Source: a virus. From it: a stretch of 54,137 nucleotides of DNA. The stretch lies in the IMG/VR virus record IMGVR_UViG_3300021400_000023. One strand, given 5' to 3'. Shown here in pieces: positions 6,577 through 52,836 of this stretch. The notes under the pieces are model-generated. The model searched no databases. It was not told where the DNA came from and saw only the letters and a program-made list of their open reading frames with translations. Numbering within the stretch: the stretch's first letter is position 1; every line of letters begins with the position of its first letter. The position numbers were made by a program, and so were the translations under genes.

Positions 6577-6705
6577 TGGCGGGAATGGCCGGAATTGAAC
6601 CGGCGCCCTGCGGAATGGTTACGGGTTTTCCTCTAACAGCAATCCGCCCCGTCGGACGGGCTGCCACTTTCTTTACCACCGCTCTACCATTTGAGCTACA
6701 TTCCC
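6577..6705 (-). tRNA. tRNA-like gene with canonical acceptor, D and T arms and encoded CCA, but 129 nt long (about 53 extra nt in the anticodon region)
   Basis: Minus-strand read: GGGAATG-TA-GCTC-AAATGGTA-GAGC ...(76 nt)... GCCGG-TTCAATT-CCGGC-CATTCCC-G-CCA. Confidence 0.5.
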
Positions 6706-8526: not shown

Positions 8527-8739
8527 TTACACAGCCTCCTTGGCCGGTTTGTAGTGGTACAGCTCTTCCGGGGTTTTCTTCAACACCTGGCACAGTCCGA
8601 AAAACTCATCCACGTCAACCTTGCGCTTACCGGCGAGCATGGCGCTGAAAGTAGGCTCGCTCATGCCGATACGGTCAGCGATGTACTTCTGCTTCAAGCC
8701 GCTGTCTGCGACTGCCGCGCTGATGCGTTCATTAACCAC
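8527..8739 (-). CDS. XRE-family HTH regulator (Cro-like)
   Basis: 70-aa HTH protein (LKQKYIADRIGMSEPTFSAMLAGKR) that is divergent from the CI-like gene. Confidence 0.8.
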   Translation of the reverse strand: MVNERISAAVADSGLKQKYIADRIGMSEPTFSAMLAGKRKVDVDEFFGLCQVLKKTPEELYHYKPAKEAV

Positions 8740-8760
8740 GCTGTTATCCTCCTCTCTTTT

Positions 8761-8777
8761 CTTCGGAATCTCCGAAG
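8761..8777. promoter_or_regulatory. Operator-like palindrome CTTCGGAATCTCCGAAG
   Basis: Perfect 7-bp arms lie just downstream of the leftward -10. A related site TTCAGAATTTCCGAAG is at 8824-8839. Confidence 0.55.
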
Positions 8778-8786
8778 TGTAGATAC

Positions 8787-8815
8787 ATTATAATTCGGCG
8801 TCGCCGTATTGTCAA
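8787..8815 (-). promoter_or_regulatory. Leftward early promoter (TTGACA-17-TATAAT)
   Basis: The reverse complement reads ttgaca (8815-8810), a 17-nt spacer, then tataat (8792-8787). Confidence 0.65.
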
Positions 8816-8823
8816 CAGAAAAA

Positions 8824-8839
8824 TTCAGAATTTCCGAAG
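8824..8839. promoter_or_regulatory. Second operator-like site TTCAGAATTTCCGAAG
   Basis: It is related to the 8761-8777 palindrome and lies between the two divergent -35 boxes. Confidence 0.45.
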
Positions 8840-8846
8840 TTTTTTA

Positions 8847-8875
8847 TTGCAAAGGGCCTCCCGATACGATATAAT
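8847..8875 (+). promoter_or_regulatory. Rightward repressor promoter (TTGCAA-17-TATAAT)
   Basis: ttgcaa at 8847-8852, a 17-nt spacer, then tataat at 8870-8875, upstream of the GTG at 8905. Confidence 0.6.
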
Positions 8876-8904
8876 CAAAGAGAACAACGCAAGGAGGCGA
8901 TTTT

Positions 8905-9276
8905 GTGGGAGAAATAAGAAAGACCGTAGGAGAGAATATTAAGAAGGTCTGCCAACTAAAGGGAATACGACAGGTTGATATATCGGAGCACATGAAGGTG
9001 TCGCAGGGCACCGTTTCTAACTGGTTCAAGGGTACGAACTCAATAGATATTGAAAACCTCGCCGAATTGTGCTCTTTCCTCGGCGTTTCATTGGATCAGA
9101 TTTTCGGCGTGGCCCCGCTGACGCCAGAAGTTACATTGTCACAGGAAGAAACCGACCTTTTGAGCATGTTCCGTGCTTTGAACAGCCAGGGGAAGGATAT
9201 GCTCATGAGCACAGCCCGCGCTTTTGCTGGCAATCCTGATATGCAAAAAGAAAGTACGAAGTCAAAGATGGCGTGA
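8905..9276 (+). CDS. XRE-family HTH repressor (CI-like, no peptidase domain)
   Basis: GTG start follows AAGGAGG. The HTH is LKGIRQVDISEHMKVSQGTVSNWFKG. At 123 aa there is no room for an S24 domain. Confidence 0.8.
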   Translation: MGEIRKTVGENIKKVCQLKGIRQVDISEHMKVSQGTVSNWFKGTNSIDIENLAELCSFLGVSLDQIFGVAPLTPEVTLSQEETDLLSMFRALNSQGKDMLMSTARAFAGNPDMQKESTKSKMA

Positions 9277-10004: not shown

Positions 10005-11621
10005 ATGAAAACCGTTAAAACCCAAAGCGGCGCGACGAAAGCGGTAATCTATGCCCGCTATTCGTCCCACGGCCAGACGGAGCAATCCATAGAGGGCCAG
10101 TTGCATGATAACTACGCCTGGGCGAAACAGCAAGGGATCACCGTCATAGGCGAATATATAGACCGCGCCCTGACAGGTACAAAGGACGCCCGCCCGGACT
10201 TCCAGCGAATGATTGAGGACGCGGCCAAGCGTCAGTTTGAAATGGTGATCGTCTGGAAGCTGGACAGGTTCGCCCGCAATCGCTACGACAGCGCCATCTA
10301 CAAGGCCCGTCTGAAAAAGTACGGCGTCAAGGTCGTGTCCGTAAAAGAGAACATCACCGACAGCCCGGAAGGAATTATCCTGGAAGGGCTGCTGGAGAGC
10401 ATGGCGGAATACTACTCGGCCAATCTTTCGCAGAACGTCAAGCGCGGACTGCGCGAGAGCGTGGAAAAGGGGTATTACTGCGGCGGCAGCATCCCATACG
10501 GCTACAAGGCGGAAAACCACCGCCTTGTCCCGGACGAGAAAACCGCGCCCATCATCCGCTATGTGTTTGAGGAGTACGCCAAGGGCACGTCCAAGAAGGA
10601 GATCATCGACGAGCTGAACCGGCGCGGCGTGCGCAACGGGAAGGGAAACCCGCTGACATATACATCCTTCCAGCACGCCCTACGCATGACCACCTATATA
10701 GGGGAGTATGTCTATCAGGGAAAGGTCGTGCCCTGCGCCGATCCTCTGGTGACGCGGGAAGTGTTTGACAAGGTGCAGGCCCGCCTTGACCGGCGCGCTC
10801 ATGCTCCCGCCGCTGCCAAGGCCCGCGTCCCGTATCTGCTACAAGGGAAAGCCTGGTGCGGCCTGTGCGGCGCGCCCATGTTTGGGGAAAGCGGTACGTC
10901 GCACACCGGCGCGCTCCACACCTATTACTGCTGCTACAATCGGAAACGGAAAAAGGGATGCAAGAAGAAAACCGAGCGCCGCGATAAGCTGGAAACCTTC
11001 ATCGTCGCCCGGACGATGGATTATATCTTGACGCCATCCCGTATGAACAGGATAGCAAAGGCCGTCGTGCAGGAGTATAACAAGGAGTTCTCCGGCTCCC
11101 GCGTGGAGGATATGGAAAAGGCCATCGCACAGATAGACCGGGAAATGGACAAGCTGGTGGACGCCCTAATTGACGCGCCCAAGGCCGCGCACAAGAAAAT
11201 CTATGCCCGCATGGAAACGCTGGAAGTGCAGAAAGCGGAGTTTGAAACCGACGCGGCCAAGCTGCGCGTCGCTATGGGCCTCCGCCTGACGGAAAAGGAA
11301 GTCGTGTCCTGGCTAAAGACCTTCCGCGACGGCGATCCCGACGATCCCGATTTCCGCCGCCGTCTGGTGGACATCTTCATCAATGCTGTGTACGTCTACG
11401 ACGACAGGATCATAGTCTTTTATAACATCCGGGGAGGCAAACAGGTGTCGAGCAAAGACCTGTACGAAGCCCTGGAAAGCCCGAAAGATAAAGAAAATTC
11501 CAAACCCGAAACAGGTTCGGATTTGGAATCATCTGGCGGGGCGGGTAATTCTAAATCCGAACCCGAATTTGTATTTGTGCATGGCGTCTTTGGGTGCATT
11601 TTCCCATGGGGCGAGGGATGA
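10005..11621 (+). CDS. Large serine recombinase (integrase)
   Basis: Resolvase-type N-terminus AVIYARYSSHGQ...DRFARN, a recombinase domain, a Cys-rich zinc ribbon (CGLCGAPM...YYCCYNRKRKKGC) and a coiled-coil tail. 538 aa. Confidence 0.92.
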   Translation: MKTVKTQSGATKAVIYARYSSHGQTEQSIEGQLHDNYAWAKQQGITVIGEYIDRALTGTKDARPDFQRMIEDAAKRQFEMVIVWKLDRFARNRYDSAIYKARLKKYGVKVVSVKENITDSPEGIILEGLLESMAEYYSANLSQNVKRGLRESVEKGYYCGGSIPYGYKAENHRLVPDEKTAPIIRYVFEEYAKGTSKKEIIDELNRRGVRNGKGNPLTYTSFQHALRMTTYIGEYVYQGKVVPCADPLVTREVFDKVQARLDRRAHAPAAAKARVPYLLQGKAWCGLCGAPMFGESGTSHTGALHTYYCCYNRKRKKGCKKKTERRDKLETFIVARTMDYILTPSRMNRIAKAVVQEYNKEFSGSRVEDMEKAIAQIDREMDKLVDALIDAPKAAHKKIYARMETLEVQKAEFETDAAKLRVAMGLRLTEKEVVSWLKTFRDGDPDDPDFRRRLVDIFINAVYVYDDRIIVFYNIRGGKQVSSKDLYEALESPKDKENSKPETGSDLESSGGAGNSKSEPEFVFVHGVFGCIFPWGEG

Positions 11622-11651: not shown

Positions 11652-11691
11652 AACCGGCGGCAGGGAAAGCCAAACCCAGCCGCCGGTTTTT
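11652..11691 (+). terminator. Intrinsic terminator after the integrase gene
   Basis: Stem AACCGGCGGC / GCCGCCGGTT is followed by TTTTT. Confidence 0.7.
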
Positions 11692-11820
11692 CACGTTTCT
11701 AATTATCCGCGCGCGCACGCGCGAGGGGCCGTTTGGGGCCGTCCAGGTGAATGAAATTCATAAAAAAATTAAAAAAATTAGCGAAATGGTGGGCTCCCAG
11801 CGCCCGCGAGAGAGGAAAAT

Positions 11821-12780
11821 GACGCGCGCAGTACCTACACGCGGAAGCGGGCGCGCGCGTACACGCGCGGGCGGGCGAGCGCGCGGCGCGACGCGAGCGC
11901 AGGGGCGCGGGGGCGCGCGGGGGCACGCGGCGCGTGACGCAGGGGCGCAGGGGTGCGCGGATGCGTAGCGCGCTGGCGTTGCGCGTTGCGCGGTAAAAGC
12001 AACCCCGTAGGGGTTGCATCCTGGGGCGCGTAGCGCCCGCGCGATGGCGCGGGGCGTGGCGCGGGGGCCGCGCGTCCAGGGGTGCGGCGCAGCGGGGCGC
12101 GGATCGCGGGCGGGGCCATGGGCGGCCATGGGCGCGGCGCGGGCCGTCGGGGCAATTCGGCAGCAGGCCGCCGGGGATCGCCGCCGGGGCCGGGGCCGTC
12201 TGGACGTGTCCAGGATCGCCGCCGGATGGATCGCCCGCCGGGACGGTTGACAGCTCCGGCGACGTGTCCAGGCGGCAGGCAGCCCCTCGCACGCGCGCCC
12301 GCATGGGCGGCCGGGGTGGCGTGTCCAGGATCGCCGCCGGGGATCGCGGCAGGCAGCAGGGGGCAGCACGCGCGCGGGCATGGGCGGCCATGGGCGCGGC
12401 AGGGGCCGCCGGGGATCGCCGCCCGCAAAGGGGCAGCATGTTTTTATTTCATTCGGCCTTGATTGTTTCCGCCGGGGATCGCGGGCGGCGTGTCCAGGGG
12501 CAGCAGGCCGCCGGGGATCGCCGCCGGGGCTGGGGCCGTGTCCAGGGGCAGCAGGCCGCCGGGGATCGCCGCCGGGGCCGTGGACGTGTCCAGGGCAGCG
12601 GGCCGCCGGATGGATCGCGGCAGGCAGCAGGGGCCGCCCGCGTCCAGGGGGCCGGATTATTTCAGCAGGGGCAGCAGGCCGCCGGGGCCGTGTCCATTTC
12701 GACGGGCGGCAGGGGCGCGGCGCGCATGGGCAGCGCGGGCAGGATCGCGCTCACGCATATACGCGGGAACATAAAACGCG
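11821..12780. repeat. Hyper-GC non-coding region with degenerate 46-47-bp repeats
   Basis: Recurrent words are gccgccggggatcgc, gtgtccagg, ggcagcagg and catgggcggccatgggcgcggc. All six frames are open with Arg/Gly/Pro/Ala-rich translations and no RBS. Confidence 0.8.
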
Positions 12781-12834
12781 CGTGCGCCCGTTGCCCCTCA
12801 AAAAAATTTTTTTATTCCCCGTAGGGGAATACCT

Positions 12835-12875
12835 GGCCCGAAAAACAGGGGTGTTTCCGCACGGGCCGTTTTTTT
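12835..12875 (+). terminator. Intrinsic terminator at the right edge of the GC-rich block
   Basis: GGCCCG ... CGGGCC stem is followed by a T7 run. Confidence 0.55.
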
Positions 12876-12968
12876 GTGCTATGCTTTTCACGTCGCAAGG
12901 CAAGCGGCCCGCCGGGGACGGCGGCAAGCCCCCGAAAAAATTTCCCGAAAAAAATTTTTGAAAAGGGC

Positions 12969-13021
12969 TTGACAAACGGGGTACACCGTGATAACATGGG
13001 CACCGTGGACGGGGTACACCG
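12969..13021 (+). promoter_or_regulatory. Island promoter cassette P1 (TTGACA-17-TAACAT) with two ACGGGGTACACCG repeats
   Basis: ttgaca at 12969-12974 and -10 at 12992-12997. The repeats are at 12976-12988 and 13009-13021. An A/T tract lies upstream. Confidence 0.7.
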
Positions 13022-13054: not shown

Positions 13055-13327
13055 ATGACAACGATTAGCCGCGAACAATTCCGGGTGCTTGAAGGGATCG
13101 CATATTGGCGGGCGGAAATCGCCTGGACGGTTGAAAGATACGGGGCCGACGACGTGGATTTGCCAAAATTCCGCGCAACCCTTGAAAGCCTGCTTGACGA
13201 AGCGGATCGAAAGTCGATCCCGTGGGCGGTACAGAATAACGTGCTTGTGTTCGCTGAAAATTGGCGGGCCGAAAAAAGCCGCTATTTGGATTGCGTGCTG
13301 CTTGAAAAGGGCGTCAAGGTTGCGTAA
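13055..13327 (+). CDS. Hypothetical protein (first island gene)
   Basis: ATG is preceded by AGGAGGCCAACACC. 90 aa. Confidence 0.65.
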   Translation: MTTISREQFRVLEGIAYWRAEIAWTVERYGADDVDLPKFRATLESLLDEADRKSIPWAVQNNVLVFAENWRAEKSRYLDCVLLEKGVKVA

Positions 13328-13424
13328 AGTCGAAACGCGGCGGGGCCGCGTCCGCCGGGGATCGCCTCCCGGCGCTGATGATGGCAGGCGAACACAACAC
13401 CGAATTTTTAAGGAGGCCAACACC

Positions 13425-14601: not shown

Positions 14602-14683
14602 ACGCCCCGAAATCATTCCGCCCGACGATGGCCCGCCGGTTACGGGCCGAAACGATCCCGCCGGGATCGTCGCGGAAAACCGC
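14601..14683 (+). repeat. Double-hairpin intergenic element, copy 1
   Basis: aacgccccgaaatcattccgcccgacgatGGCCCGccggttaCGGGCCgaaaCGATCCCgccGGGATCGtcgcggaaaaccgc. Near-identical copies are at 15413-15487 and 18243-18323. Confidence 0.85.
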
Positions 14684-14707
14684 CGAAAAAAATTTTCGGA
14701 AAAGGGG

Positions 14708-19742: not shown

Positions 19743-19771
19743 TTGACAAACGGGGTACACTAATTTATAAT
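19743..19771 (+). promoter_or_regulatory. Island promoter cassette P4 (TTGACA-17-TATAAT) with one ACGGGGTACAC repeat
   Basis: ttgaca at 19743-19748 and tataat at 19766-19771. The repeat is at 19750-19760. Confidence 0.7.
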
Positions 19772-23602: not shown

Positions 23603-23754
23603 GCCTTATCCTCCTTTTTGCGCTTTCGTCGTATTCCGTGCGGATAGTGCGTCCATGCGATGCCGACAATGCAAACCACGCTGAAAAGAATAAATAAAAG
23701 GGCCAGCGCCCCTATAAAGATCGCTGCTTCCAGCAGTTCACGCGGCAATTTCAT
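23599..23754 (-). CDS. Small transmembrane protein
   Basis: The ATG at 23754 forms an ATGA overlap with the RT stop. TM segment AAIFIGALALLFILFSVVCIVGIA. Confidence 0.45.
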   Translation of the reverse strand: MKLPRELLEAAIFIGALALLFILFSVVCIVGIAWTHYPHGIRRKRKKEDKA

Positions 23755-25154
23755 AAATAGACCACCTCCGCGCTGGCGCACCAGTCGTCATAGCGCGCCC
23801 TGATGTCCTCCTCCATCCCGTCGAACGGCTCCACGCCTCGCACAACGAGCATTTCCACGTCGTAGTCTGTCGCGCCGTCCTCCGTCGTCAGGGGCAGCAC
23901 ATGGGGCCGCAGATACACGTCTACCGTGCCGTCCTCCTGCTCCTGGATGGTATAAAAATGCCGCCTCCCCGGCGGCTGATCGCTCTCAATATTCATATTG
24001 TCGCACCTTTGAAGTACAAAGTGTTCCTCGATCCAGCGGATCATGTTGTGACCGTTACAATGCTTGCACATCCCGATATAGCAGATCACGCTTTCCATCG
24101 CCGCGTCATAGCTGATTTGCCATGCGGCAAAGGCCGCCATGATGAAGCGCAGGCTCCGCTTGATGTGTGTCGTGGTCTTTCGTCTCATGCGGATGCCGTG
24201 CGGCGTCAGCAGATAACCCACGAACTCAACCGGGGCCGTCGCCTTTTGGATTCTGCTTTTCGGGCTGATGTCAAGCAGCAGCTCGTCCCGAAGAAAGGTT
24301 TCGATGGCGGCGAATATTCGCTTTGCATTCTCCTTGCCCTTGACGAGGATGCAGAAATCGTCCATATAGCGCACATAGTAGTGTACTTTCAGCGTGCGCT
24401 TGATGAATTGATCCAGCTTGTCCAGAAACAGGTTGGCCGTTTCCTGGCTCGTCAGGTTGCCGATGGGCATACCCACATCAAAGAGCCGCCGCCATCGCGG
24501 GCAATCATCCGGCTTCATCCCCGGAGGCAGGCCGAAAGGCACGTCCGGGTTATTGATGATTGTCCGCATAAGCCAGCGAAACCAGGCGTCGTCTGATACC
24601 TCGTCGTAGGTATTCAGCACCTTCCCGTGTTCAACCCTGTAAAAGTATTTGCTGATGTCGCCCTTGATAAGATACCATTCGTCCGCGTCCGGCTTCCGGC
24701 TGATCTTCTGCTGCCAGTTTTGCAGGCACTCCGCCGCTGGCAGCGTTCCTTTGCCCTTCCGGCACCCGTAGCTGTGCGTGATATATCGCTTGTCCAGATA
24801 TGGGTTGATTTGCCGGTAAATGGCCCATTGCACAACGCGATCCCGAAAGCCCAGCGCCATGACGAGCCTCGGCTTCGGGTAGCGTACATAAAATTCCCGA
24901 TATGGCCCCACCTTGTAGGTCATATCCAGTAGCTCTTTCTGTATCTGGTGCAGATTCGCGCCCAGGTTGAAAGAGAAGTCCAAAACCTCATTGCGATACC
25001 GTTTCCCCTTTGCGGCGTCCCGGTAAGCGCCCATCAGGTTTTCAAAATCACAGATGCGGTCTTTCAGATTGTGCAGCCCTTCCAAAACATTCACCCCGCC
25101 CTGTGAACTGCCGCGCGTGACGTGTTCCGTCAGGCATAGACTGTAATGCCCCAA
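23751..25154 (-). CDS. DGR reverse transcriptase
   Basis: RT motifs include PIGNLTSQ (the DGR-type motif 4) and YVRYMDDF (YxDD box). 467 aa. Confidence 0.9.
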   Translation of the reverse strand: MGHYSLCLTEHVTRGSSQGGVNVLEGLHNLKDRICDFENLMGAYRDAAKGKRYRNEVLDFSFNLGANLHQIQKELLDMTYKVGPYREFYVRYPKPRLVMALGFRDRVVQWAIYRQINPYLDKRYITHSYGCRKGKGTLPAAECLQNWQQKISRKPDADEWYLIKGDISKYFYRVEHGKVLNTYDEVSDDAWFRWLMRTIINNPDVPFGLPPGMKPDDCPRWRRLFDVGMPIGNLTSQETANLFLDKLDQFIKRTLKVHYYVRYMDDFCILVKGKENAKRIFAAIETFLRDELLLDISPKSRIQKATAPVEFVGYLLTPHGIRMRRKTTTHIKRSLRFIMAAFAAWQISYDAAMESVICYIGMCKHCNGHNMIRWIEEHFVLQRCDNMNIESDQPPGRRHFYTIQEQEDGTVDVYLRPHVLPLTTEDGATDYDVEMLVVRGVEPFDGMEEDIRARYDDWCASAEVVYL

Positions 25155-25356: not shown

Positions 25357-25476
25357 GGGAGCGGGGGCGGCACCCATAGTTGTTGTTGGCGTTGCCGCGC
25401 TCGTTGTTGGCATTGACATAGCCAAGCCCCGCGTTGCTGCCGTTGTTGTAGTTGCCGCCGCGACGGGGGAAGCGCT
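25357..25476 (-). repeat. DGR template repeat (TR)
   Basis: 120 bp matching 26085-26204 at 107 of 120 positions. In the sense strand it carries AAC/TAC/TAT codons at the sites that differ. Confidence 0.9.
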
Positions 25477-26079: not shown

Positions 26080-27294
26080 TCAGAGGGAGCGGGGGCGGCA
26101 CCCATAGACGACGTAGGCGTTGCCGCGCTCGTTGTTGGCATTGACACAGCCAAGCCCCGCGCCGCTGCCGGAGTTGAAGGCGCCGCCGCGACGGGGGAAG
26201 CGCTCGCCCGCCACGAAGTTGACGTAGTAATAGCCGGGGGTGTCGTCGCCCGCGCCGGTCTTGATAAGGCCCAGCTCGTAAACGATGCTCGGCACATAAG
26301 GCAGGCGCGTGGTGTTCACCGCAACCGTGCTGAAACTTTCGCCCTTCGCGCCCACGGTCAGGTCGTCGCATTGCGTGTCCAGGGTGATATGCCCGTTCAG
26401 CCAGTTCCAATGGAGCGTGCCAGCCGTGCCGGGGGCGACGAGGGTATAGCCGTTGTCGCTGGTGTTCGGCAGGATCGCGCGCCACGCGGCGGAAGAAGCG
26501 GACAGGTCGGCGTCCGGGTCGGCGGCGTTGTTGTTCTCCAGGATTTGCAGCTCACAGTCCACGATGCGGTAGCCGTACTGCTGTTCCAGGCTGGAGCCGA
26601 TGATGTCCGCCAGCAGGGCCGGGTCGCTGCCCAGATACCAGTCCAGCGGGCCGGTGCCGTTCAGCGTCCGATAGCCGGTCTGATGGGCCGCGTCGGGCGT
26701 GCCGTCGTTGCTGATGCCGCCCACAAACTTGCCCTTCTCCCAATAGGTCGGGGCCAGGTCGGGCCGCAGCTCCGCCGCCGTGGTGTGGGCAATCAGGCAC
26801 TTGTAAATGTACCCGTTGTAGGCTCTTTCCGTGTTCACGGACAGCGCCTTGCCGGTTTCCCAGGCGCTCGCGTCCTGGTGTGCCTGCCCCCAGGCGGTAT
26901 TTCCGTGCGGCTTCCAGCCGTTCTTCTGCGCCAGCAGCTTGATAAAGCCGTAGTCCGCACAGGTCATGCCGGTAATGCCGGGGCCAGCCAGCTTCATGCG
27001 GGAAAGGCACTGATCCGCGCCCAGGCTCCGGGCCGGGTTGATGTTCGGCAGGCTCACCAGCGCGCCGCCGGAAACGCCGTTCTCGCCGCCCTTGTACTTG
27101 CCAAGCAGAATGTAATCCTGCTCCACGCCATTGATGATAAAGGCCGGGTGCGTGTGCTCCGGCAGCCCCGCCACCAGGTCGGAGCTTTTCATTTTGGGAA
27201 ATTTGACGAAGATACCGGCCACGTTGCCGTCCGCGTCGTACTTCACGACGTTACCGTACTTCTTCGCCAGAAATTCAAGAGGGCTGTTATTCAT
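26080..27294 (-). CDS. DGR target protein: putative receptor-binding tail fibre with C-terminal variable region
   Basis: It is the last gene of the tail module. The C-terminus ...RRGGAFNSGSGAGLGCVNANNERGNAYVVYGCR carries the VR. An internal CBM5/12-like motif reads AWETGKALSVNTERAYNGYIYKCLIAHT...PTYWE. Confidence 0.85.
   Translation of the reverse strand: MNNSPLEFLAKKYGNVVKYDADGNVAGIFVKFPKMKSSDLVAGLPEHTHPAFIINGVEQDYILLGKYKGGENGVSGGALVSLPNINPARSLGADQCLSRMKLAGPGITGMTCADYGFIKLLAQKNGWKPHGNTAWGQAHQDASAWETGKALSVNTERAYNGYIYKCLIAHTTAAELRPDLAPTYWEKGKFVGGISNDGTPDAAHQTGYRTLNGTGPLDWYLGSDPALLADIIGSSLEQQYGYRIVDCELQILENNNAADPDADLSASSAAWRAILPNTSDNGYTLVAPGTAGTLHWNWLNGHITLDTQCDDLTVGAKGESFSTVAVNTTRLPYVPSIVYELGLIKTGAGDDTPGYYYVNFVAGERFPRRGGAFNSGSGAGLGCVNANNERGNAYVVYGCRPRSL
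26085..26204 (-). repeat. DGR variable repeat (VR)
   Basis: It has 13 mismatches to TR. All are at plus-strand T, which is sense-strand A of TR. Confidence 0.9.
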
Positions 27295-46118: not shown

Positions 46119-47981
46119 TTATACTTGGATTCCACGGCTCACCACGCGGCGCTGTTTCCGCTTGGTTTCCTCGGTCTTGGTGATGATCTTCTTCGGCTCC
46201 TCGATGCCGTTCACGATGCGCTCCAACTCGTCAAACCGCCAATGGAAGTAGCGGTAGGCCATGCGCGCATAATTGCGGCAGTCCAGCGGTTCGTTGCGCT
46301 CGTAGAATTGTTCCCATACGATCACGCCCTGGCCGCCGCGCCGGTGTATCTCCATCCGCTCCGAAATCAGGCCCTTGAAATACTCCATGTCATAGCCTGC
46401 CCGGTAGTCAATGGGGAAGTGCATGTAGTTGGGGCCGGGTTCCTCCACGGCGGCCTCGTACATGATGCCCTCCTTGCCAGCGTCAACGCCCAGCATGAAT
46501 TTGGCACCTTCGCCCTGGCCGCGCTTCATAGGGCGGCACTCCGGCTTTCCTTCGCCCTTCTCGCCCTTGATAGGCCAGATGCGCTTGCTCGCCCGCTTCG
46601 CGCAGGCTTTGTATATGGCCGTCGTGAAGTGGCCGCCGGAGTCAATGAACGTCGCAAGGATTTTCATTTTCATGCCGTTGGCAAGCCGCCATTCACGATC
46701 CAGCAGCGCGTCCACTTCCTCCCAAACGCCGGGAGCGTCGGCCCGTCCAGGGATCACGCCCCGGCTGATGCCCCAGCTTTGCCCGTTCCGATCCCAGCCC
46801 ACAACCTCGTATTCCAGGCGGTTATCCTGCGTGTCCATGCCCATTGTCAGCAGCAGAACGCCCGTCGGCACCTCCGCGTCGTAGTGCTCGCGGCGCTTGT
46901 ACAGCGTTTCGTCAAGTCCGCTGTTGGTGTGTACCTCCCAGCTTTCGCCCAAAATCGTGTTGTAGAAGGTCTTTAGCTTCTCCGGGTCTTTATGGGCTTT
47001 GAGGAATTTCCAGACAATATCCTTCCAGTCGCTCCAGGGCGACATAAAGGCGTTGAGGCGGAAGGAGCGGATGCCGTTCTGAATGGCTTTCGGGTTCTTC
47101 TGCACCCATTTGGCAGGCAGGCGCTTGCACTCGTATTCGCCGATGTCGCGCTTGCACGTCGGGCACCGCCACGTTACAACCTTGACGTGATAATCCTCGT
47201 CGCCGCCCTCGTTCACATAGTCCTCTTTCTCGAAGTGGATGTCAGCGAAGCGGATGTAGTTGTAGGTGTGACAATGCGGGCACTCGGTATGCCATTCCTC
47301 CTGTGTGCCGTTCATGTAATCCGTTTCAATCTTGGATTTCCCCTTTATCGTCGGCGTGCTGGTCTTAACTATCTTGCGGTTATGCCGGAAAGTTTCGGTT
47401 CGGCGCTCGGCCAATTCCTGCGGGTCGCCCTCTGTTCCGGCGCTGGCCGGGAAGCGGTCTGTTTCGTCCATGAAGATGTACCTCACCGGCTTACTGGATA
47501 GGTCGGCGGGGCTGTTGGCCCCGATGATGGCAAGGCTGCCGCCGGGAAAGGTTTTCATGCTGATGGTGTTTGCCGCGTCGCGGCTCCGCGCCTTGAACAC
47601 TTTTTCCCGCAGCGTCGGGCACGCCTGGATCATGGGGGCGATACGCCGCTTGGAATAGTCCTCCGCCACCTTGTCCGTCGGCTGAATGTAGAGCATCGGG
47701 CCGGGGTCGTTGTCGATGGCGCACCCCATCATGTTCAGCTCGATTTCGGATTTGCCTACCTGGGCGCTCGCCATAATCACGATCTGCCATATTCCCGGCT
47801 GGGTGAAGGCGTCCATAATCTCCCGCTGATAGGGGGCGCGGTCAGTTCGCCATGCGCCGGGTTCCGCGCTGCTCTCCGAAACGAGCACGCGGTTTGCGTC
47901 CGCCCATTCCGACACCGTTTGCTGTGCCGGGGGCCGGAACATCGAATAGGTGTATCGGGCGAGTTCGGCTATGGCGCTCAT
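46119..47981 (-). CDS. terL: Terminase large subunit (lambda gpA-like)
   Basis: Walker A-like ASAQVGKSE and IFMDETDRFP. 620 aa. Confidence 0.9.
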   Translation of the reverse strand: MSAIAELARYTYSMFRPPAQQTVSEWADANRVLVSESSAEPGAWRTDRAPYQREIMDAFTQPGIWQIVIMASAQVGKSEIELNMMGCAIDNDPGPMLYIQPTDKVAEDYSKRRIAPMIQACPTLREKVFKARSRDAANTISMKTFPGGSLAIIGANSPADLSSKPVRYIFMDETDRFPASAGTEGDPQELAERRTETFRHNRKIVKTSTPTIKGKSKIETDYMNGTQEEWHTECPHCHTYNYIRFADIHFEKEDYVNEGGDEDYHVKVVTWRCPTCKRDIGEYECKRLPAKWVQKNPKAIQNGIRSFRLNAFMSPWSDWKDIVWKFLKAHKDPEKLKTFYNTILGESWEVHTNSGLDETLYKRREHYDAEVPTGVLLLTMGMDTQDNRLEYEVVGWDRNGQSWGISRGVIPGRADAPGVWEEVDALLDREWRLANGMKMKILATFIDSGGHFTTAIYKACAKRASKRIWPIKGEKGEGKPECRPMKRGQGEGAKFMLGVDAGKEGIMYEAAVEEPGPNYMHFPIDYRAGYDMEYFKGLISERMEIHRRGGQGVIVWEQFYERNEPLDCRNYARMAYRYFHWRFDELERIVNGIEEPKKIITKTEETKRKQRRVVSRGIQV

Positions 47982-47984
47982 GCG

Positions 47985-48512
47985 TTATACCTCCTCGTCG
48001 CCCTCCTCCTCGCTTTCTTCGCCGCTCTCCTCCGCCGCGTAGGTTGGCAGGGGAGTATCGGCGATTTCCTCCAGCGCTGCGCGGATTTCCTTGCCGATCA
48101 TGTCCGCGATCACTTCCGCGTTATCCTGCATCAGCAGCATGGGGGCAAGTTTACTCGGAAGGTGGATCATGTTTTGCATGACGGTGTTTGCGATGTCGCC
48201 CCAAAGCCGCTTCACGTCCTGCACGTCGATCAACTGGCCGCGCATCCGGGCTACTTCCAGCTCGGTTTTCTGCGTCTTGACCACTTCATGCCGCGCCTTT
48301 ACCGTGTCCAGGTCGTCCACTTCGGAGGCTTCATTGTTGACGTTGTAATCAACCCACCGCTGCACAAAAATAGCGAGGTCGTACTTGCCGCCCTCGCTCT
48401 CTACAAACAGTTTCTTTTCCTGCGGTTGATCCCGGTCTATGTCGTACAACCGCCGGTATGTATAGCCTGCGATCTGCGCAAGCTCTTTTTTTGTCATGCC
48501 AGGAATCGCCAT
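47985..48512 (-). CDS. terS: Terminase small subunit (Nu1-like)
   Basis: N-terminal HTH-like MTKKELAQIAGYTYRRLYDI and an acidic C-terminus, directly upstream of terL. Confidence 0.6.
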   Translation of the reverse strand: MAIPGMTKKELAQIAGYTYRRLYDIDRDQPQEKKLFVESEGGKYDLAIFVQRWVDYNVNNEASEVDDLDTVKARHEVVKTQKTELEVARMRGQLIDVQDVKRLWGDIANTVMQNMIHLPSKLAPMLLMQDNAEVIADMIGKEIRAALEEIADTPLPTYAAEESGEESEEEGDEEV

Positions 48513-48514
48513 GC

Positions 48515-49132
48515 TTACACCCTCATAGCCCGCATAAACTCATGTTCGATGCGCTGCTTCATGTACTCCAGGATGTCCTTCTGCACTTCCGCCTCGCTTC
48601 GGTTCATGGGCATCTGTGGAATGGCGATACCGACAACCTTTTTGATGGGGAAGCGCCGTTTCCCGGCGCGGGTGAAGGTCAGGCCGCCCAGCTTGCTTCC
48701 CAGATTACGGAAAGGAGGCTGGCCGCCGTAGCTGCTCATGGTGGCCGGAAGCGTGCTCACGCCCGCCTTGACGACGCGGCCCTTGACGCGGTATTTTCTC
48801 CGCAGGCTGTTCCAGCCGTGCGCGCCGCCGCTGGCGCTGTACCGTCCGCCGATGCTGCCCCGGCTGTCCCGGATGGGGATAGTGCATCCCAGGCCGCCCG
48901 CGCTGGATGTCATTTTCGCGTTTCCCACGGCGCTGCTGATCTGCCCCGCCTTAACGTGGTATTCATGGGGAAGGTCTTGCCGCAGGATCATCTTCACATG
49001 GCCGCCCGTCCGCTGGAAGATGGAATACATGATCTGGTTGAACCGCTCCGGCGTAACCACCGCTTTCAGCGCGTTCACTTTATCCTGCAATTCGCTGGCG
49101 TCGATTTCCAGGTATATGCTCGGATTTGCCAC
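48515..49132 (-). CDS. Hypothetical virion-associated protein (weak gpZ-like resemblance)
   Basis: GTG start follows GAGGGGGTGG. It is the first gene after the late promoter and terminator. Confidence 0.4.
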   Translation of the reverse strand: MANPSIYLEIDASELQDKVNALKAVVTPERFNQIMYSIFQRTGGHVKMILRQDLPHEYHVKAGQISSAVGNAKMTSSAGGLGCTIPIRDSRGSIGGRYSASGGAHGWNSLRRKYRVKGRVVKAGVSTLPATMSSYGGQPPFRNLGSKLGGLTFTRAGKRRFPIKKVVGIAIPQMPMNRSEAEVQKDILEYMKQRIEHEFMRAMRV

Positions 49133-51258: not shown

Positions 51259-52836
51259 TTATACCGCCTCCTTGCAGAACTCCGGCAGATTGGCCCGGAC
51301 AAGTGCCGTCGGGATCGGCGGGCACACCGCGTTTCCGCAGCGCGCCACCTGTTCGGATTTCGGATAGGGCTTTCCGTCCGCGTCCACGTCGATGATGTAA
51401 TCCTTCGGGAAGCCCTGGGCATTGAAAAGCTCCCTCGGCGTCAGCATCCGCAGGCCAATATCGACGATCTGGTAATCCTGTCCGCGCACGGTCACAAGGC
51501 CCATTCTGTCCTTTGCTGTCACCGTCGGGGCTGGTTTGTCGCATGGCACGGCGTTGTCGCCGTTCCCGTAATACTTCACCAGGAAAGCGCATACCTCGCC
51601 GAAGTGGTTTGTCTGCGCCGTCATGGTGTTCAGCGGCTTCGTCACTTCCTGTCCGACGCTGTAATGGTTGAATTGCGTCACGGCCACGGCGCACACCGCG
51701 TTATGGTCAATGGCCGTCACCGTCGGCAGGGGCTTGTCCACGCCTGCGGCCACGTTATCCCCGCCGTAATACTTGCTTATGAAGGTTGATACCAGCCCGT
51801 AACGGTTGCTGGCGTCCACCGTCATAAGCGGATCGTCTACTTCCTGGCCGCGCACATCGCCTCCCTGCTCGTCGTGGTATTGGATCAGGTTCGGCGCTAT
51901 TCTATCTTCTCCGTCCACGCTCACGATGAACGGGTGCGGGTTCTCAATGACAAACTTCTGGATGCCGCGCGCAATCCTGCGCATGGTCGCGTCTGCAAGC
52001 GGCCTCACGGCCCGGATGCCGTACTGCTCGTAGATTTCCTCGCTCGTCGCAAAGATGGACGGGCACGGCAGAGAAAAGTCCAGCACGTCCGCAACCGGCT
52101 TCCAGGGCTTCTTCATCCCTGCCGCCACTTCCAGGCTGTCCGGGTCGCCGTGGGTCGCTTTCGGCCAGACAATCGGCTTCCCGTCGCACCTGGCAATCAG
52201 AAAAAAGCGCTTTCGGATCGTCGGTGCGCCGTAATCACAGGCCCGCAGCTCCCGGTGTTCGACGTGATAGCCCAGCCCCATAGCCAGCTTCATAGCCTGC
52301 TGCGCGTCCGGCTTCAAGAAATCGCACGCCTCATGAAAGGCCGGATGATCCAATGCAATGCCGGTTGTCAGCATGGAGATAAAGCCCTTGAAGGTTTCAC
52401 CGGCCCGCGCCGGGTTTGGCACGGTCTTTCCGTCCTTTCGCTTCATCAGCGGCCCCCATGTCTGTATTTCCTCCACGTTCTCCATCATAATCACACGGGG
52501 GCGCACCGTCATAGCCCAGCGCAGGATCACCCAGGAAAGGCCCCGGATATGCTTGCTGACGGGCTTTCCGCCCTTTGCTTTGGAAAAGTGTTTGCAATCC
52601 GGCGAAAACCACGCCAGCCCTACGGGGTGCCCTTCGCAGGCTTCCACGGGATCAACCATCCAAATATCTTCCGTGTAATGTTTGCTCGTCGGATGATTGG
52701 CCCGGTGCATGGCGATGGCAGCAGGATCATGATTGATTGCCACGTCCACGCTCCGGCCTATGGCTATCTCAATGCCGGTGCTCGCGCCTCCGCCCCCGGC
52801 GAAATTGTCCACAACGATTTCTCCCGTGCTGTTCAT
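51259..52836 (-). CDS. DNA (cytosine-5)-methyltransferase
   Basis: Motif I DNFAGGGGAS, motif IV SPDCKHFS, motif VI MMENVEE, TIRKRFF and C-terminal GNAVCPP. There are repeated PLxT(V/M)TA units in the variable region. Confidence 0.9.
   Translation of the reverse strand: MNSTGEIVVDNFAGGGGASTGIEIAIGRSVDVAINHDPAAIAMHRANHPTSKHYTEDIWMVDPVEACEGHPVGLAWFSPDCKHFSKAKGGKPVSKHIRGLSWVILRWAMTVRPRVIMMENVEEIQTWGPLMKRKDGKTVPNPARAGETFKGFISMLTTGIALDHPAFHEACDFLKPDAQQAMKLAMGLGYHVEHRELRACDYGAPTIRKRFFLIARCDGKPIVWPKATHGDPDSLEVAAGMKKPWKPVADVLDFSLPCPSIFATSEEIYEQYGIRAVRPLADATMRRIARGIQKFVIENPHPFIVSVDGEDRIAPNLIQYHDEQGGDVRGQEVDDPLMTVDASNRYGLVSTFISKYYGGDNVAAGVDKPLPTVTAIDHNAVCAVAVTQFNHYSVGQEVTKPLNTMTAQTNHFGEVCAFLVKYYGNGDNAVPCDKPAPTVTAKDRMGLVTVRGQDYQIVDIGLRMLTPRELFNAQGFPKDYIIDVDADGKPYPKSEQVARCGNAVCPPIPTALVRANLPEFCKEAV

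Follow-up and report, generated by a model that had tools for sequence, protein, structure and literature searches.

A kilobase of oriented GC-rich words at the chromosome end of a cos-type temperate myovirus of rumen Clostridia

The viral record IMGVR_UViG_3300021400_000023 (IMG/VR) was analyzed over its whole stretch of 54,137 nt, hereafter called the window, which is a ~54 kb temperate myovirus of rumen Clostridia. The element studied is a GC-rich repeat block at 11820-12780, located between the integrase gene and the next gene module. The original prediction described this place as hyper-GC, GATC-studded, repetitive and non-coding, and this description was confirmed by a GC content of 77.5%, 12 GATC sites and the lack of a conserved reading frame. 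The cos site was missed by that prediction and lies 17-27 nt left of the block start it gave. With cos at its left edge, the block forms the terminal kilobase of the chromosome in the virion. It is therefore the non-coding terminal ~1 kb of the packaged chromosome of a cos-type temperate myovirus, and it is conserved as DNA words, neither as a reading frame nor as a fold. Related contigs and loci are denoted by handles starting with L where they have to be told apart.

The chromosome ends were located by comparing the termini of contigs. A cosN-like cut site is found at 11794-11804, where the 11-nt CTCCCAGCGCC is common to both chromosome ends and forms a putative 5' cohesive end. On the integrase side, four contigs (L001, L006, L014 and L132) end exactly at 11804, after GGGCTCNCAGCGCC, and L009 and L007 end 1 nt and 3 nt beyond it. 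Another two contigs, L133 and L137, end at 11804 plus one untemplated A, as would be left by a trimmed A-tail on a real fragment end. The contigs stopping within 0-3 nt of 11804, seven or eight in number, come from diverged lineages and from different samples and assemblers, and their integrases are 59-100% identical to that of the window. Two genome-length contigs, L146 of the same species (53,865 bp) and L039 of a diverged lineage (55,131 bp), start at 11794 with CTC[A/C]CAGCGCC. The left-end and right-end contig sets overlap by 11 nt. These contig termini indicate that the chromosome ends are fixed at 11794/11804, and the retention of the overhang at both ends, together with the terminase family, points to a 5' overhang. 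Breaks caused by repeats or GC content do occur within the block, as L135 and L136 break at 12014 in the palindrome H1 described below, L010 and L119 overlap via an internal repeat, and L038 starts in poly-G. GC or repeat failure as the sole cause of the contig breaks was rejected because it leaves the precise stops at 11804 and the starts at 11794 unexplained. The contigs that read through cos are circular, concatemeric or integrated forms.

The terminase genes were compared with those of phages with described cos regions. The large terminase TerL (46119-47981) belongs to the lambda GpA family, with a phrog_15 match at 1.7e-225 and gpA-annotated matches. It is 47-49% identical to TerL of Roseburia phage Shimadzu and of Faecalibacterium phages Lagaffe and Taranis, with the Lagaffe/Shimadzu value given as 48%. 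The small terminase TerS (47985-48512) matches phrog_57 and is a distant relative of the Nu1-like TerS of Lagaffe (22% identical, E=1e-5). The Lagaffe cos was reportedly mapped upstream of terS (PMC5883640). On the bottom strand, the window cos is read as AGGTACT-N25-GGCGCTGGGAG, then CCCACC, T-tracts and TTTCG-like words. Similarly, the Lagaffe cos is read as AGGTACT-N23-GTGCTGGCGAG, then CCCAAAAC, an A/T tract, GTTTCG repeats and terS. In Shimadzu, AGGTTCT stands 23 nt from the nick and GTGCTTGCGAG, and is followed by an A/T tract, GTTTCG and terS; the 11-nt GTGCTTGCGAG is present at both ends of the Shimadzu record. Phage Pioen carries AGGTACT 23-25 nt before cos, and in lambda GGGTCCT is found 23 nt before the right end of the record, a heptamer known at this position as cosQ. 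The 7-bp cosQ is highly conserved among lambda-like phages (PMC4669245). The AGGTACT heptamer of the window is found at 11830-11836 on the minus strand, 25 nt before the nick in the likely packaging direction, and is a putative cosQ. The sequence CAGTACCT at this place is invariant in all lineages covered, and its distance from the cut is fixed. Judged by sequence, the window cos is homologous to the Shimadzu and Lagaffe cos.

The stretch at 11697-11793, on the likely packaging-initiation side, is a cosB-like flank. It is the most conserved non-coding stretch across lineages, above the integrase gene int, and contains a conserved GC hairpin with GGGGCC..GGGGCC (11705-11746), the palindrome ATGAAATTCAT and two phased A7 tracts (11748-11785). 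Its place corresponds to that of the A/T-tract and TTTCG side of the Lagaffe/Shimadzu cos beside terS. An A-tract also lies beside the cut on the TerS side in HK97 and lambda (PMC11331095, PMC4856287). In Lagaffe (MG711461.1 47970-48211 and 1-84) and Shimadzu (LR596903.1 44616-44991), cos separates the neck gene from terS. These two genes are directly adjacent in the window (48512-48515), and cos is ~17 kb from terS. This arrangement suggests that cos has been relocated to the attP end in the clade of the window.

The block consists of 441 G, 304 C, 115 A and 101 T, and the rest of the window has a GC content of 58%. Its 12 GATC sites compare with 1.75 expected from the mononucleotide composition, and all 12 are embedded in GGATCGC on the plus strand, with no reverse-complement copy. 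The same constant orientation, without any reverse-complement copy in the block, was found for GTCCAGG (8 copies on the plus strand), GTGTCCAGG (6 exact copies), GGCAGCAGG (6 copies) and CCGCCGG (13 copies). Exact copies of GCCGCCGGGGATCGC were found at 12167, 12333, 12405, 12507 and 12555, with one 1-mismatch copy at 12468, against 0.55 copies expected by chance when up to 2 mismatches are allowed; the original count of at least seven copies of this word holds only when variants are included. Two more GCCGCCGGATGGATCGC variants and two copies of CATGGGCGGCCATGGGCGCGGC are present in the block. The distance from one GATC to the next ranges from 13 to 130 nt, without helical phase. The palindrome originally placed at 12199-12212 exists as CTGGACGTGTCCAG at 12200-12213, and the original coordinates are within 1-2 nt overall. 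Short CpG-containing palindromes are packed very densely in the block, and the phage encodes a C5 cytosine methylase.

The conservation of the block was examined across lineages. In 6 of 6 diverged lineages, with genome GC of 46-61%, the GC of the block is 8 to 24 points above that of its surroundings, and this is the one block feature that persists in all six. Unbiased k-mers were compared among the four lineages with complete blocks, and only a few words had at least 3 copies in all four. GTCCAGG is present in 8, 5, 7 and 6 copies and GGATCG in 12, 5, 6 and 10 copies, and the reverse complement of either word is found in none of the four blocks. GGGCGCG is present in 8, 9, 3 and 4 copies, with 1, 1, 0 and 2 copies of its reverse complement. 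The number of such k-mers common to shuffled sequences was 0-0.17. Among strains of one species, GGATCG varies between 9 and 13 copies and GTCCAGG between 7 and 12, and the distance from cosQ to the first early promoter P1 is 1043-1296 nt among close strains, a spread of ~250 nt between fixed flanks. The five-lineage alignment of the block is poor, and the inner array aligns badly between lineages. Conservation of the flanks and hairpins exceeds that of the adjacent genes, and the density of point substitutions in the left, CpG-rich half is not above that of the neighbouring genes.

From left to right, the block starts with a CpG/GCGCG-rich segment on the plus strand (11837-11998), which is nearly free of A/T and enriched in oriented GGGCGCG. 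It is followed by the hairpin or palindrome H1 (11999-12017), which is read as GCAACCCC-GTA-GGGGTTGC, then ATCCTGGG, and is kept in L004, L010, L131 and L140. In L039, H1 is replaced by GCAAAGCC-ATAA-GGCTTTGC, with both arms changed and the pairing kept. A cos-like GGGCGCGTAGCGCCCGCG with 3 mismatches to the cos core was observed directly after H1, at 12024-12041 on the plus strand. The array at 12074-12748 was defined by word counts and strain comparison. It is a plus-strand, variable-number array of the composite unit [C/T]GCCGG - GGATCG - ([C/T]GCCGG) - GTCCAGG, in which the internal spacing depends on the lineage and the units are joined by GGCAGCAGG in the lineage of the window. The array starts ~280 bp from the cut and is present on one side only. 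Its most regular part, at 12489-12618 on the plus strand, has 2.7 copies of a 48-nt unit by Tandem Repeats Finder (score 207, 91% matches), which replaces the local period of 46-47 nt given originally. Both AT islands of the original prediction are present. The one within the array (12438-12470) is T-rich on the plus strand, holds ATTTCATTC and recurs in close strains; T-rich islands also occupy the corresponding place of L140, and L004 lacks the island.

The right edge is similarly conserved. The junction GCGCTCACGCATAYACGCGGGAACATAAAACGCGCGTGCGCCCGTT at 12747-12792 is near-identical in L004, whose integrase protein is 69% identical. The palindrome H2 at 12813-12831, TATTCCCC-GTA-GGGGAATA, closes the block in the clade, and its symmetry is kept in L004, L039, L056 and L140 as TACCCCC-GTA-GGGGGTA. 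An intrinsic terminator follows on the plus strand (12835-12876), with the stem GGCCCG/CGGGCC and then T7, and is kept in L004, L056 and L131. The early promoter P1 is found at 12969-12997 (+) as TTGACA-17-TAACAT with an extended -10 (score 10/12, TG present) and two GGGGTACACC operators, and drives the operon with a hammerhead ribozyme and ardC. A palindrome of the H2 type, TTACCCCC-GTA-GGGGGTAA, was also observed in 16 copies in L120, a 9.4-kb locus of a low-GC phage. All five of the L120 copies read are just upstream of an early promoter, and the palindrome may be a common regulator site or a terminator.

Homologous blocks with shared landmarks were found in more than 10 independent assemblies. 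This demonstrates that the block is not an assembly artefact, one of the two findings that would have overturned the original description. No DNA match to the block was found among GenBank phages. Among 80 ardC loci checked, the hyper-GC block was found in the close clade only, and a seeming further case in L042 proved to be coding sequence.

A protein-binding array is the best fit among the candidates first proposed for the block. The block probably acts in the packaging or the entry of the DNA. Our favoured reading, held tentatively, is that the array serves as a cis-acting DNA platform for the terminase approaching or terminating at cos, or for the entering DNA end. By comparison with the relatives, packaging probably runs from the integrase side, away from the block. 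If the terminase binds on the integrase side and packages away from it, the motor would cross the block just before the terminal cosQ and cosN, and the block would be the last-packaged kilobase. The last DNA packaged is, as a general rule in tailed phages, the first injected, so the block would also enter the host first. In the proposed mechanism, the terminase would dock at the cosB-like flank on the integrase side of the cut, and the motor would traverse the block before reaching cosQ and cosN. The 5-13 copies of the GGATCG, [C/T]GCCGG and GTCCAGG words would be read in one direction by TerS, the terminase or an accessory protein. The array would slow or prime the motor, which would allow recognition and cleavage of the downstream cos. 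It may also have a second role, at the DNA end that enters the cell.

The rationale for this platform comes from the known behaviour of cos termination, in which TerS is needed, cosQ is needed for arrest, and a low motor speed is better (PMC11331095, PMC4856287, PMC10359639). In HK97, both the stalling and the termination directed by cos require TerS and gain in efficiency when packaging is slow, which gives the rationale for a slow-down zone (PMC11331095, PMC10359639). A more specific version of the platform is that the array is a sequence-encoded "approach zone" that slows or re-configures the motor for efficient termination. Such a zone, which we regard as unlikely at this level of detail, would perhaps compensate for the moved cos; the array might then have a dual role, serving also as a telomere-like protective platform on the end injected first.

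Several points weigh against the packaging platform. The termini are deduced from contig ends, and the 5' polarity of the overhang is likewise deduced. We know of no cos phage that needs a kilobase-long array; the lambda cos is ~200 bp, and TerS of HK97 binds one 15-bp site on the other side of the cut. The constant orientation of the words could have been inherited via tandem duplication, and the GATC spacing (13-130 nt) is irregular. No array-binding protein was identified in this analysis. The packaging direction leans on two relatives, whose termini are taken only from the record layout and from PMC5883640.

The comparison with known systems shows both likeness and difference. As in lambda, the ends are fixed, TerL is of the GpA family, TerS is a distant relative of a Nu1-like TerS, and the cut is probably staggered, with an overlap of 11 nt here and 12 nt in lambda; the heptamer stands 23-25 nt before the nick, and the A/T-tract flank is on the opposite side (PMC4856287). 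However, lambda cos is compact (~200 bp) and beside the terminase genes, with TerS sites between cosN and terS, whereas here it adjoins attP and int, and the ~1 kb hyper-GC oriented array on the cosQ side has no lambda counterpart. Lagaffe and Shimadzu have a strand-biased, T-poor, repetitive and non-coding stretch of 180-350 nt just before cosQ. This stretch differs from the block in being A/C-rich (CAAAGC-type), shorter and not GC-extreme, and in lacking GGATCG and GTCCAGG, and it may simply be a late-operon leader. In HK97, the TerS site with its A-tract is also located a few tens of bp past the cut on the initiation side, but it is a single 15-bp site, the overhang is 3', an HNH partner is used, and no repeat array is present.

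The short GATC-repeat clusters near the packaging cleavage site resemble those of phage P1. In the P1 pac, GATC-containing hexamers are set on either side of the cut, all within 162 bp, with Dam methylation and headful packaging. The phage of the window has fixed ends and a one-sided array, and the C5 methylase is the only methylase identified; an identity with a P1-type pac was rejected on these grounds. T7 has short-repeat arrays beside its terminal repeat, and T5 has a terminal region for first-step transfer. The likeness to both is the repeat-rich non-coding DNA at the first-entering end, followed by early anti-host genes. T7 and T5 differ in having direct terminal repeats, other repeats and other terminases.

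Among the rivals of the packaging platform, the one that survives best regards the block as a leader of the entering end. Until the cohesive ends anneal and ardC is expressed, the end would be buffered or shielded by this first-injected kilobase, or a protein of the host or the virion would bind there. This is possible, though we hold it to be unlikely. The order of cos, block, terminator, strong early promoters and ardC, with transcription in the probable entry direction, is consistent with such a leader, as are the raised GC in every lineage and the tolerance of the array to copy-number change. Because the block is almost free of A/T, it would also offer few targets for adenine-dependent restriction or BREX systems. 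However, a non-coding buffer would be of doubtful help, because cutting or degrading it would still destroy the cohesive end, and no end-binding protein was identified. Chi-like protection was rejected, since the G-rich words would be on the wrong strand for an exonuclease entering here, as judged from the polarity of RecBCD/AddAB.

The next rival assumes little or no sequence-specific function, the block being a tolerated, recombination-prone, GC-rich expansion in the only long non-coding slot of the genome. Units are indeed gained and lost among near-identical strains (1043-1296 nt and 9-13 GGATCG), and the inner array aligns poorly between lineages. However, three oriented words and the raised GC persist between lineages in which integrases are 59-69% identical and the genome GC ranges from 46 to 61%, and the flanks and hairpins are better conserved than the neighbouring genes. 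Near-neutral repeat turnover is rated as unlikely.

A non-coding RNA is improbable. It would be a plus-strand transcript of ~1.1 kb ending at the terminator at 12835-12876, for example a GGAUCG (GGA) sponge for an RNA-binding protein. All the words are on the plus strand like the early genes, a plus-strand terminator follows, and the 15-mer CCGCCGGGGATCGCC of the block is found again in a stem of the Hammerhead_II ribozyme (13328-13393). Some of the GGAUCG motifs of L039 lie in the loops of CCGCC...GGCGG hairpins. However, no sigma-70-type promoter was found upstream, where the int terminator and cos are located instead, and transcription would have to begin at the chromosome end or to cross cos. 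No Rfam family match was found inside the block; a sub-threshold gut-2 match of 23 bits (Rfam) lies at 11705-11746, on the other side of cos. The repeats of the block fold no better than shuffled sequences, with z values of +1.1 on the plus strand and -1.1 on the minus strand. A structured transcript, as once proposed, is not supported by these results. The G-quadruplex reading met a similar end. The plus-strand G runs described originally are real, as GGGG and CCCC occur 40 and 2 times in the block, but canonical quadruplex motifs (G3+N1-7, four runs) number 2 in the window block and 0 in L131, L140, L039 and L010+L119. A G-quadruplex region was rejected because neither these motifs nor the G-richness itself is conserved, the L039 block being C-rich.

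The original candidates included a second origin and a partition site. An origin or centromere with iterons and AT-rich islands for unwinding would account for the direct repeats, the two AT islands and the GATC clusters. It is very improbable: a DnaD-like loader, a G39P-like loader and DUF3102, the replication functions of the phage, are encoded 3-9 kb from the block on the other strand, no ParA, ParB, Rep or other initiator match was found among the gene products scanned, the repeats are not helically phased, and the phage integrates via a serine integrase. A Pro/Arg/Ala/Gly-rich repetitive protein, for example the 246-aa open reading frame (ORF) at 11699-12439 on the minus strand, can be set aside as scarcely credible. 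All six frames of the block are open over long stretches because A and T are scarce, as the original prediction observed in calling them non-protein-like, and gene callers predict ORFs in some assemblies; but the block ORFs have no Pfam match and lack the AGGAGG ribosome-binding site used by the real genes of the phage, the block translations cross-match in several frames on both strands, the open frames switch strand and phase even among close strains, and the length differences between strains (-65, -85 and -97 nt) include no multiple of 3.

The integrase locus was analyzed in relation to the block. The large serine integrase gene int is found at 10005-11621. The attP site at 11514-11563 was defined from two integrated prophages and has the core TGGCGGGGCGGGT (11534-11546) flanked by the inverted repeats GGTTCGGATTTGGAAT and ATTCTAAATCCGAACC. 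The core matches a host tRNA gene at its 3' end, and attP is within the last ~25 codons of int. In the integrated prophage L022, phage DNA switches to a host tRNA and pyrR at 11546 (L022:7520-7640), and at the opposite junction, in L145, host DNA is joined to the phage at 11534. These two junctions place attP inside the 3' end of int, so integration alters the C-terminus of the integrase; the protein is 525-526 aa in prophages and 538 aa in the free form. The block was once suggested to be close to attP, and it is: attP lies ~250 bp to its left, inside int and outside the block, which stands at the far end of the prophage. The accompanying suggestion of accessory sites for the integrase was rejected because the words of the block are unlike the attP half-sites GGTTCGGATTT. 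After int, a terminator-like hairpin with a T-run is found at 11652-11695 on the plus strand (inverted repeat I7, 14 nt, 93% complementary, then TTTTT). The consensus terminator scan did not list this element, and in other lineages a hairpin with a different sequence occupies its place.

The early genes, which include ardC, start at 13055 on the plus strand, and ArdC domains were found. Four near-identical promoter modules starting with TTGACAAACGGGG were observed at 12969, 14708, 16913 and 19743 (+); the first three have two GGGGTACACC repeats each, and the fourth, at 19743, has none. The start context AGGAGGCCAACACCATG is found 8 times. The early region resembles a series of cassettes, each with its own promoter and all under common regulation. 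A role of the block words as additional operators of the early promoters was rejected, since L039 has other operators than the window but the same block words. Just upstream of ardC, the Hammerhead_II ribozyme at 13328-13393 (+) scores 50.8 bits, and in the equivalent intergenic slot of L039 (L039:1682-1749) a Pistol ribozyme scores 65.9 bits. This indicates that different self-cleaving ribozymes occupy one position. Another intergenic stretch, at 14640-14700 (+), is read as CGAAAC-GATCCCG..GGGATC-GTC-GCGGAAAACCGC; it is like a hammerhead core without CUGAUGA and may be a decayed ribozyme.

In the remainder of the window, a CI/Cro-like pair was found at 8527-9276, and the portal, head, sheath, tape measure and lysin genes were found at 22-46 kb on the minus strand. 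The C5 cytosine methylase (525 aa) is encoded at 51259-52836 (-). A reverse transcriptase is encoded at 23751-25154 (-; phrog_1423, E ~1e-110), and it adjoins a pair of 120-nt repeats at 25357-25476 and 26085-26204 that are 89% identical. The reverse transcriptase and the repeat pair are probably a diversity-generating retroelement near the tail genes. A link of the reverse transcriptase to the block was rejected, as this repeat pair is unrelated to the block. At 6580-6705 (-), an Rfam tRNA match of 50.1 bits spans 126 nt, and ARAGORN found no tRNA in the window. This element may be a tRNA with an insertion or an intron, and tRNA matches were observed at the equivalent place in L004 and L010.

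Literature searches found no description of such a block, and no counterpart has been described for oriented GC-rich repeats that extend over a kilobase before cosQ; their context is a chromosome end beside an apparently relocated cos. To our knowledge, no sequence-encoded brake is known for cos terminases. Termination in HK97 and lambda depends on motor speed and cosQ (PMC11331095, PMC4856287). A packaging role for the array, if real, would make it the first long cis element found in nature to condition a cos terminase ahead of its cut site. For this uncultured rumen phage clade, the annotation gained consists of cos, the 11-nt end, the cosQ-like heptamer and the attP inside int. The frequent breaks of metagenomic contigs at this place are explained by the chromosome end at cos. 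With cos at the attP end, prophage and virion share a nearly collinear map, and the anti-restriction operon would be located at the leading end of the chromosome.

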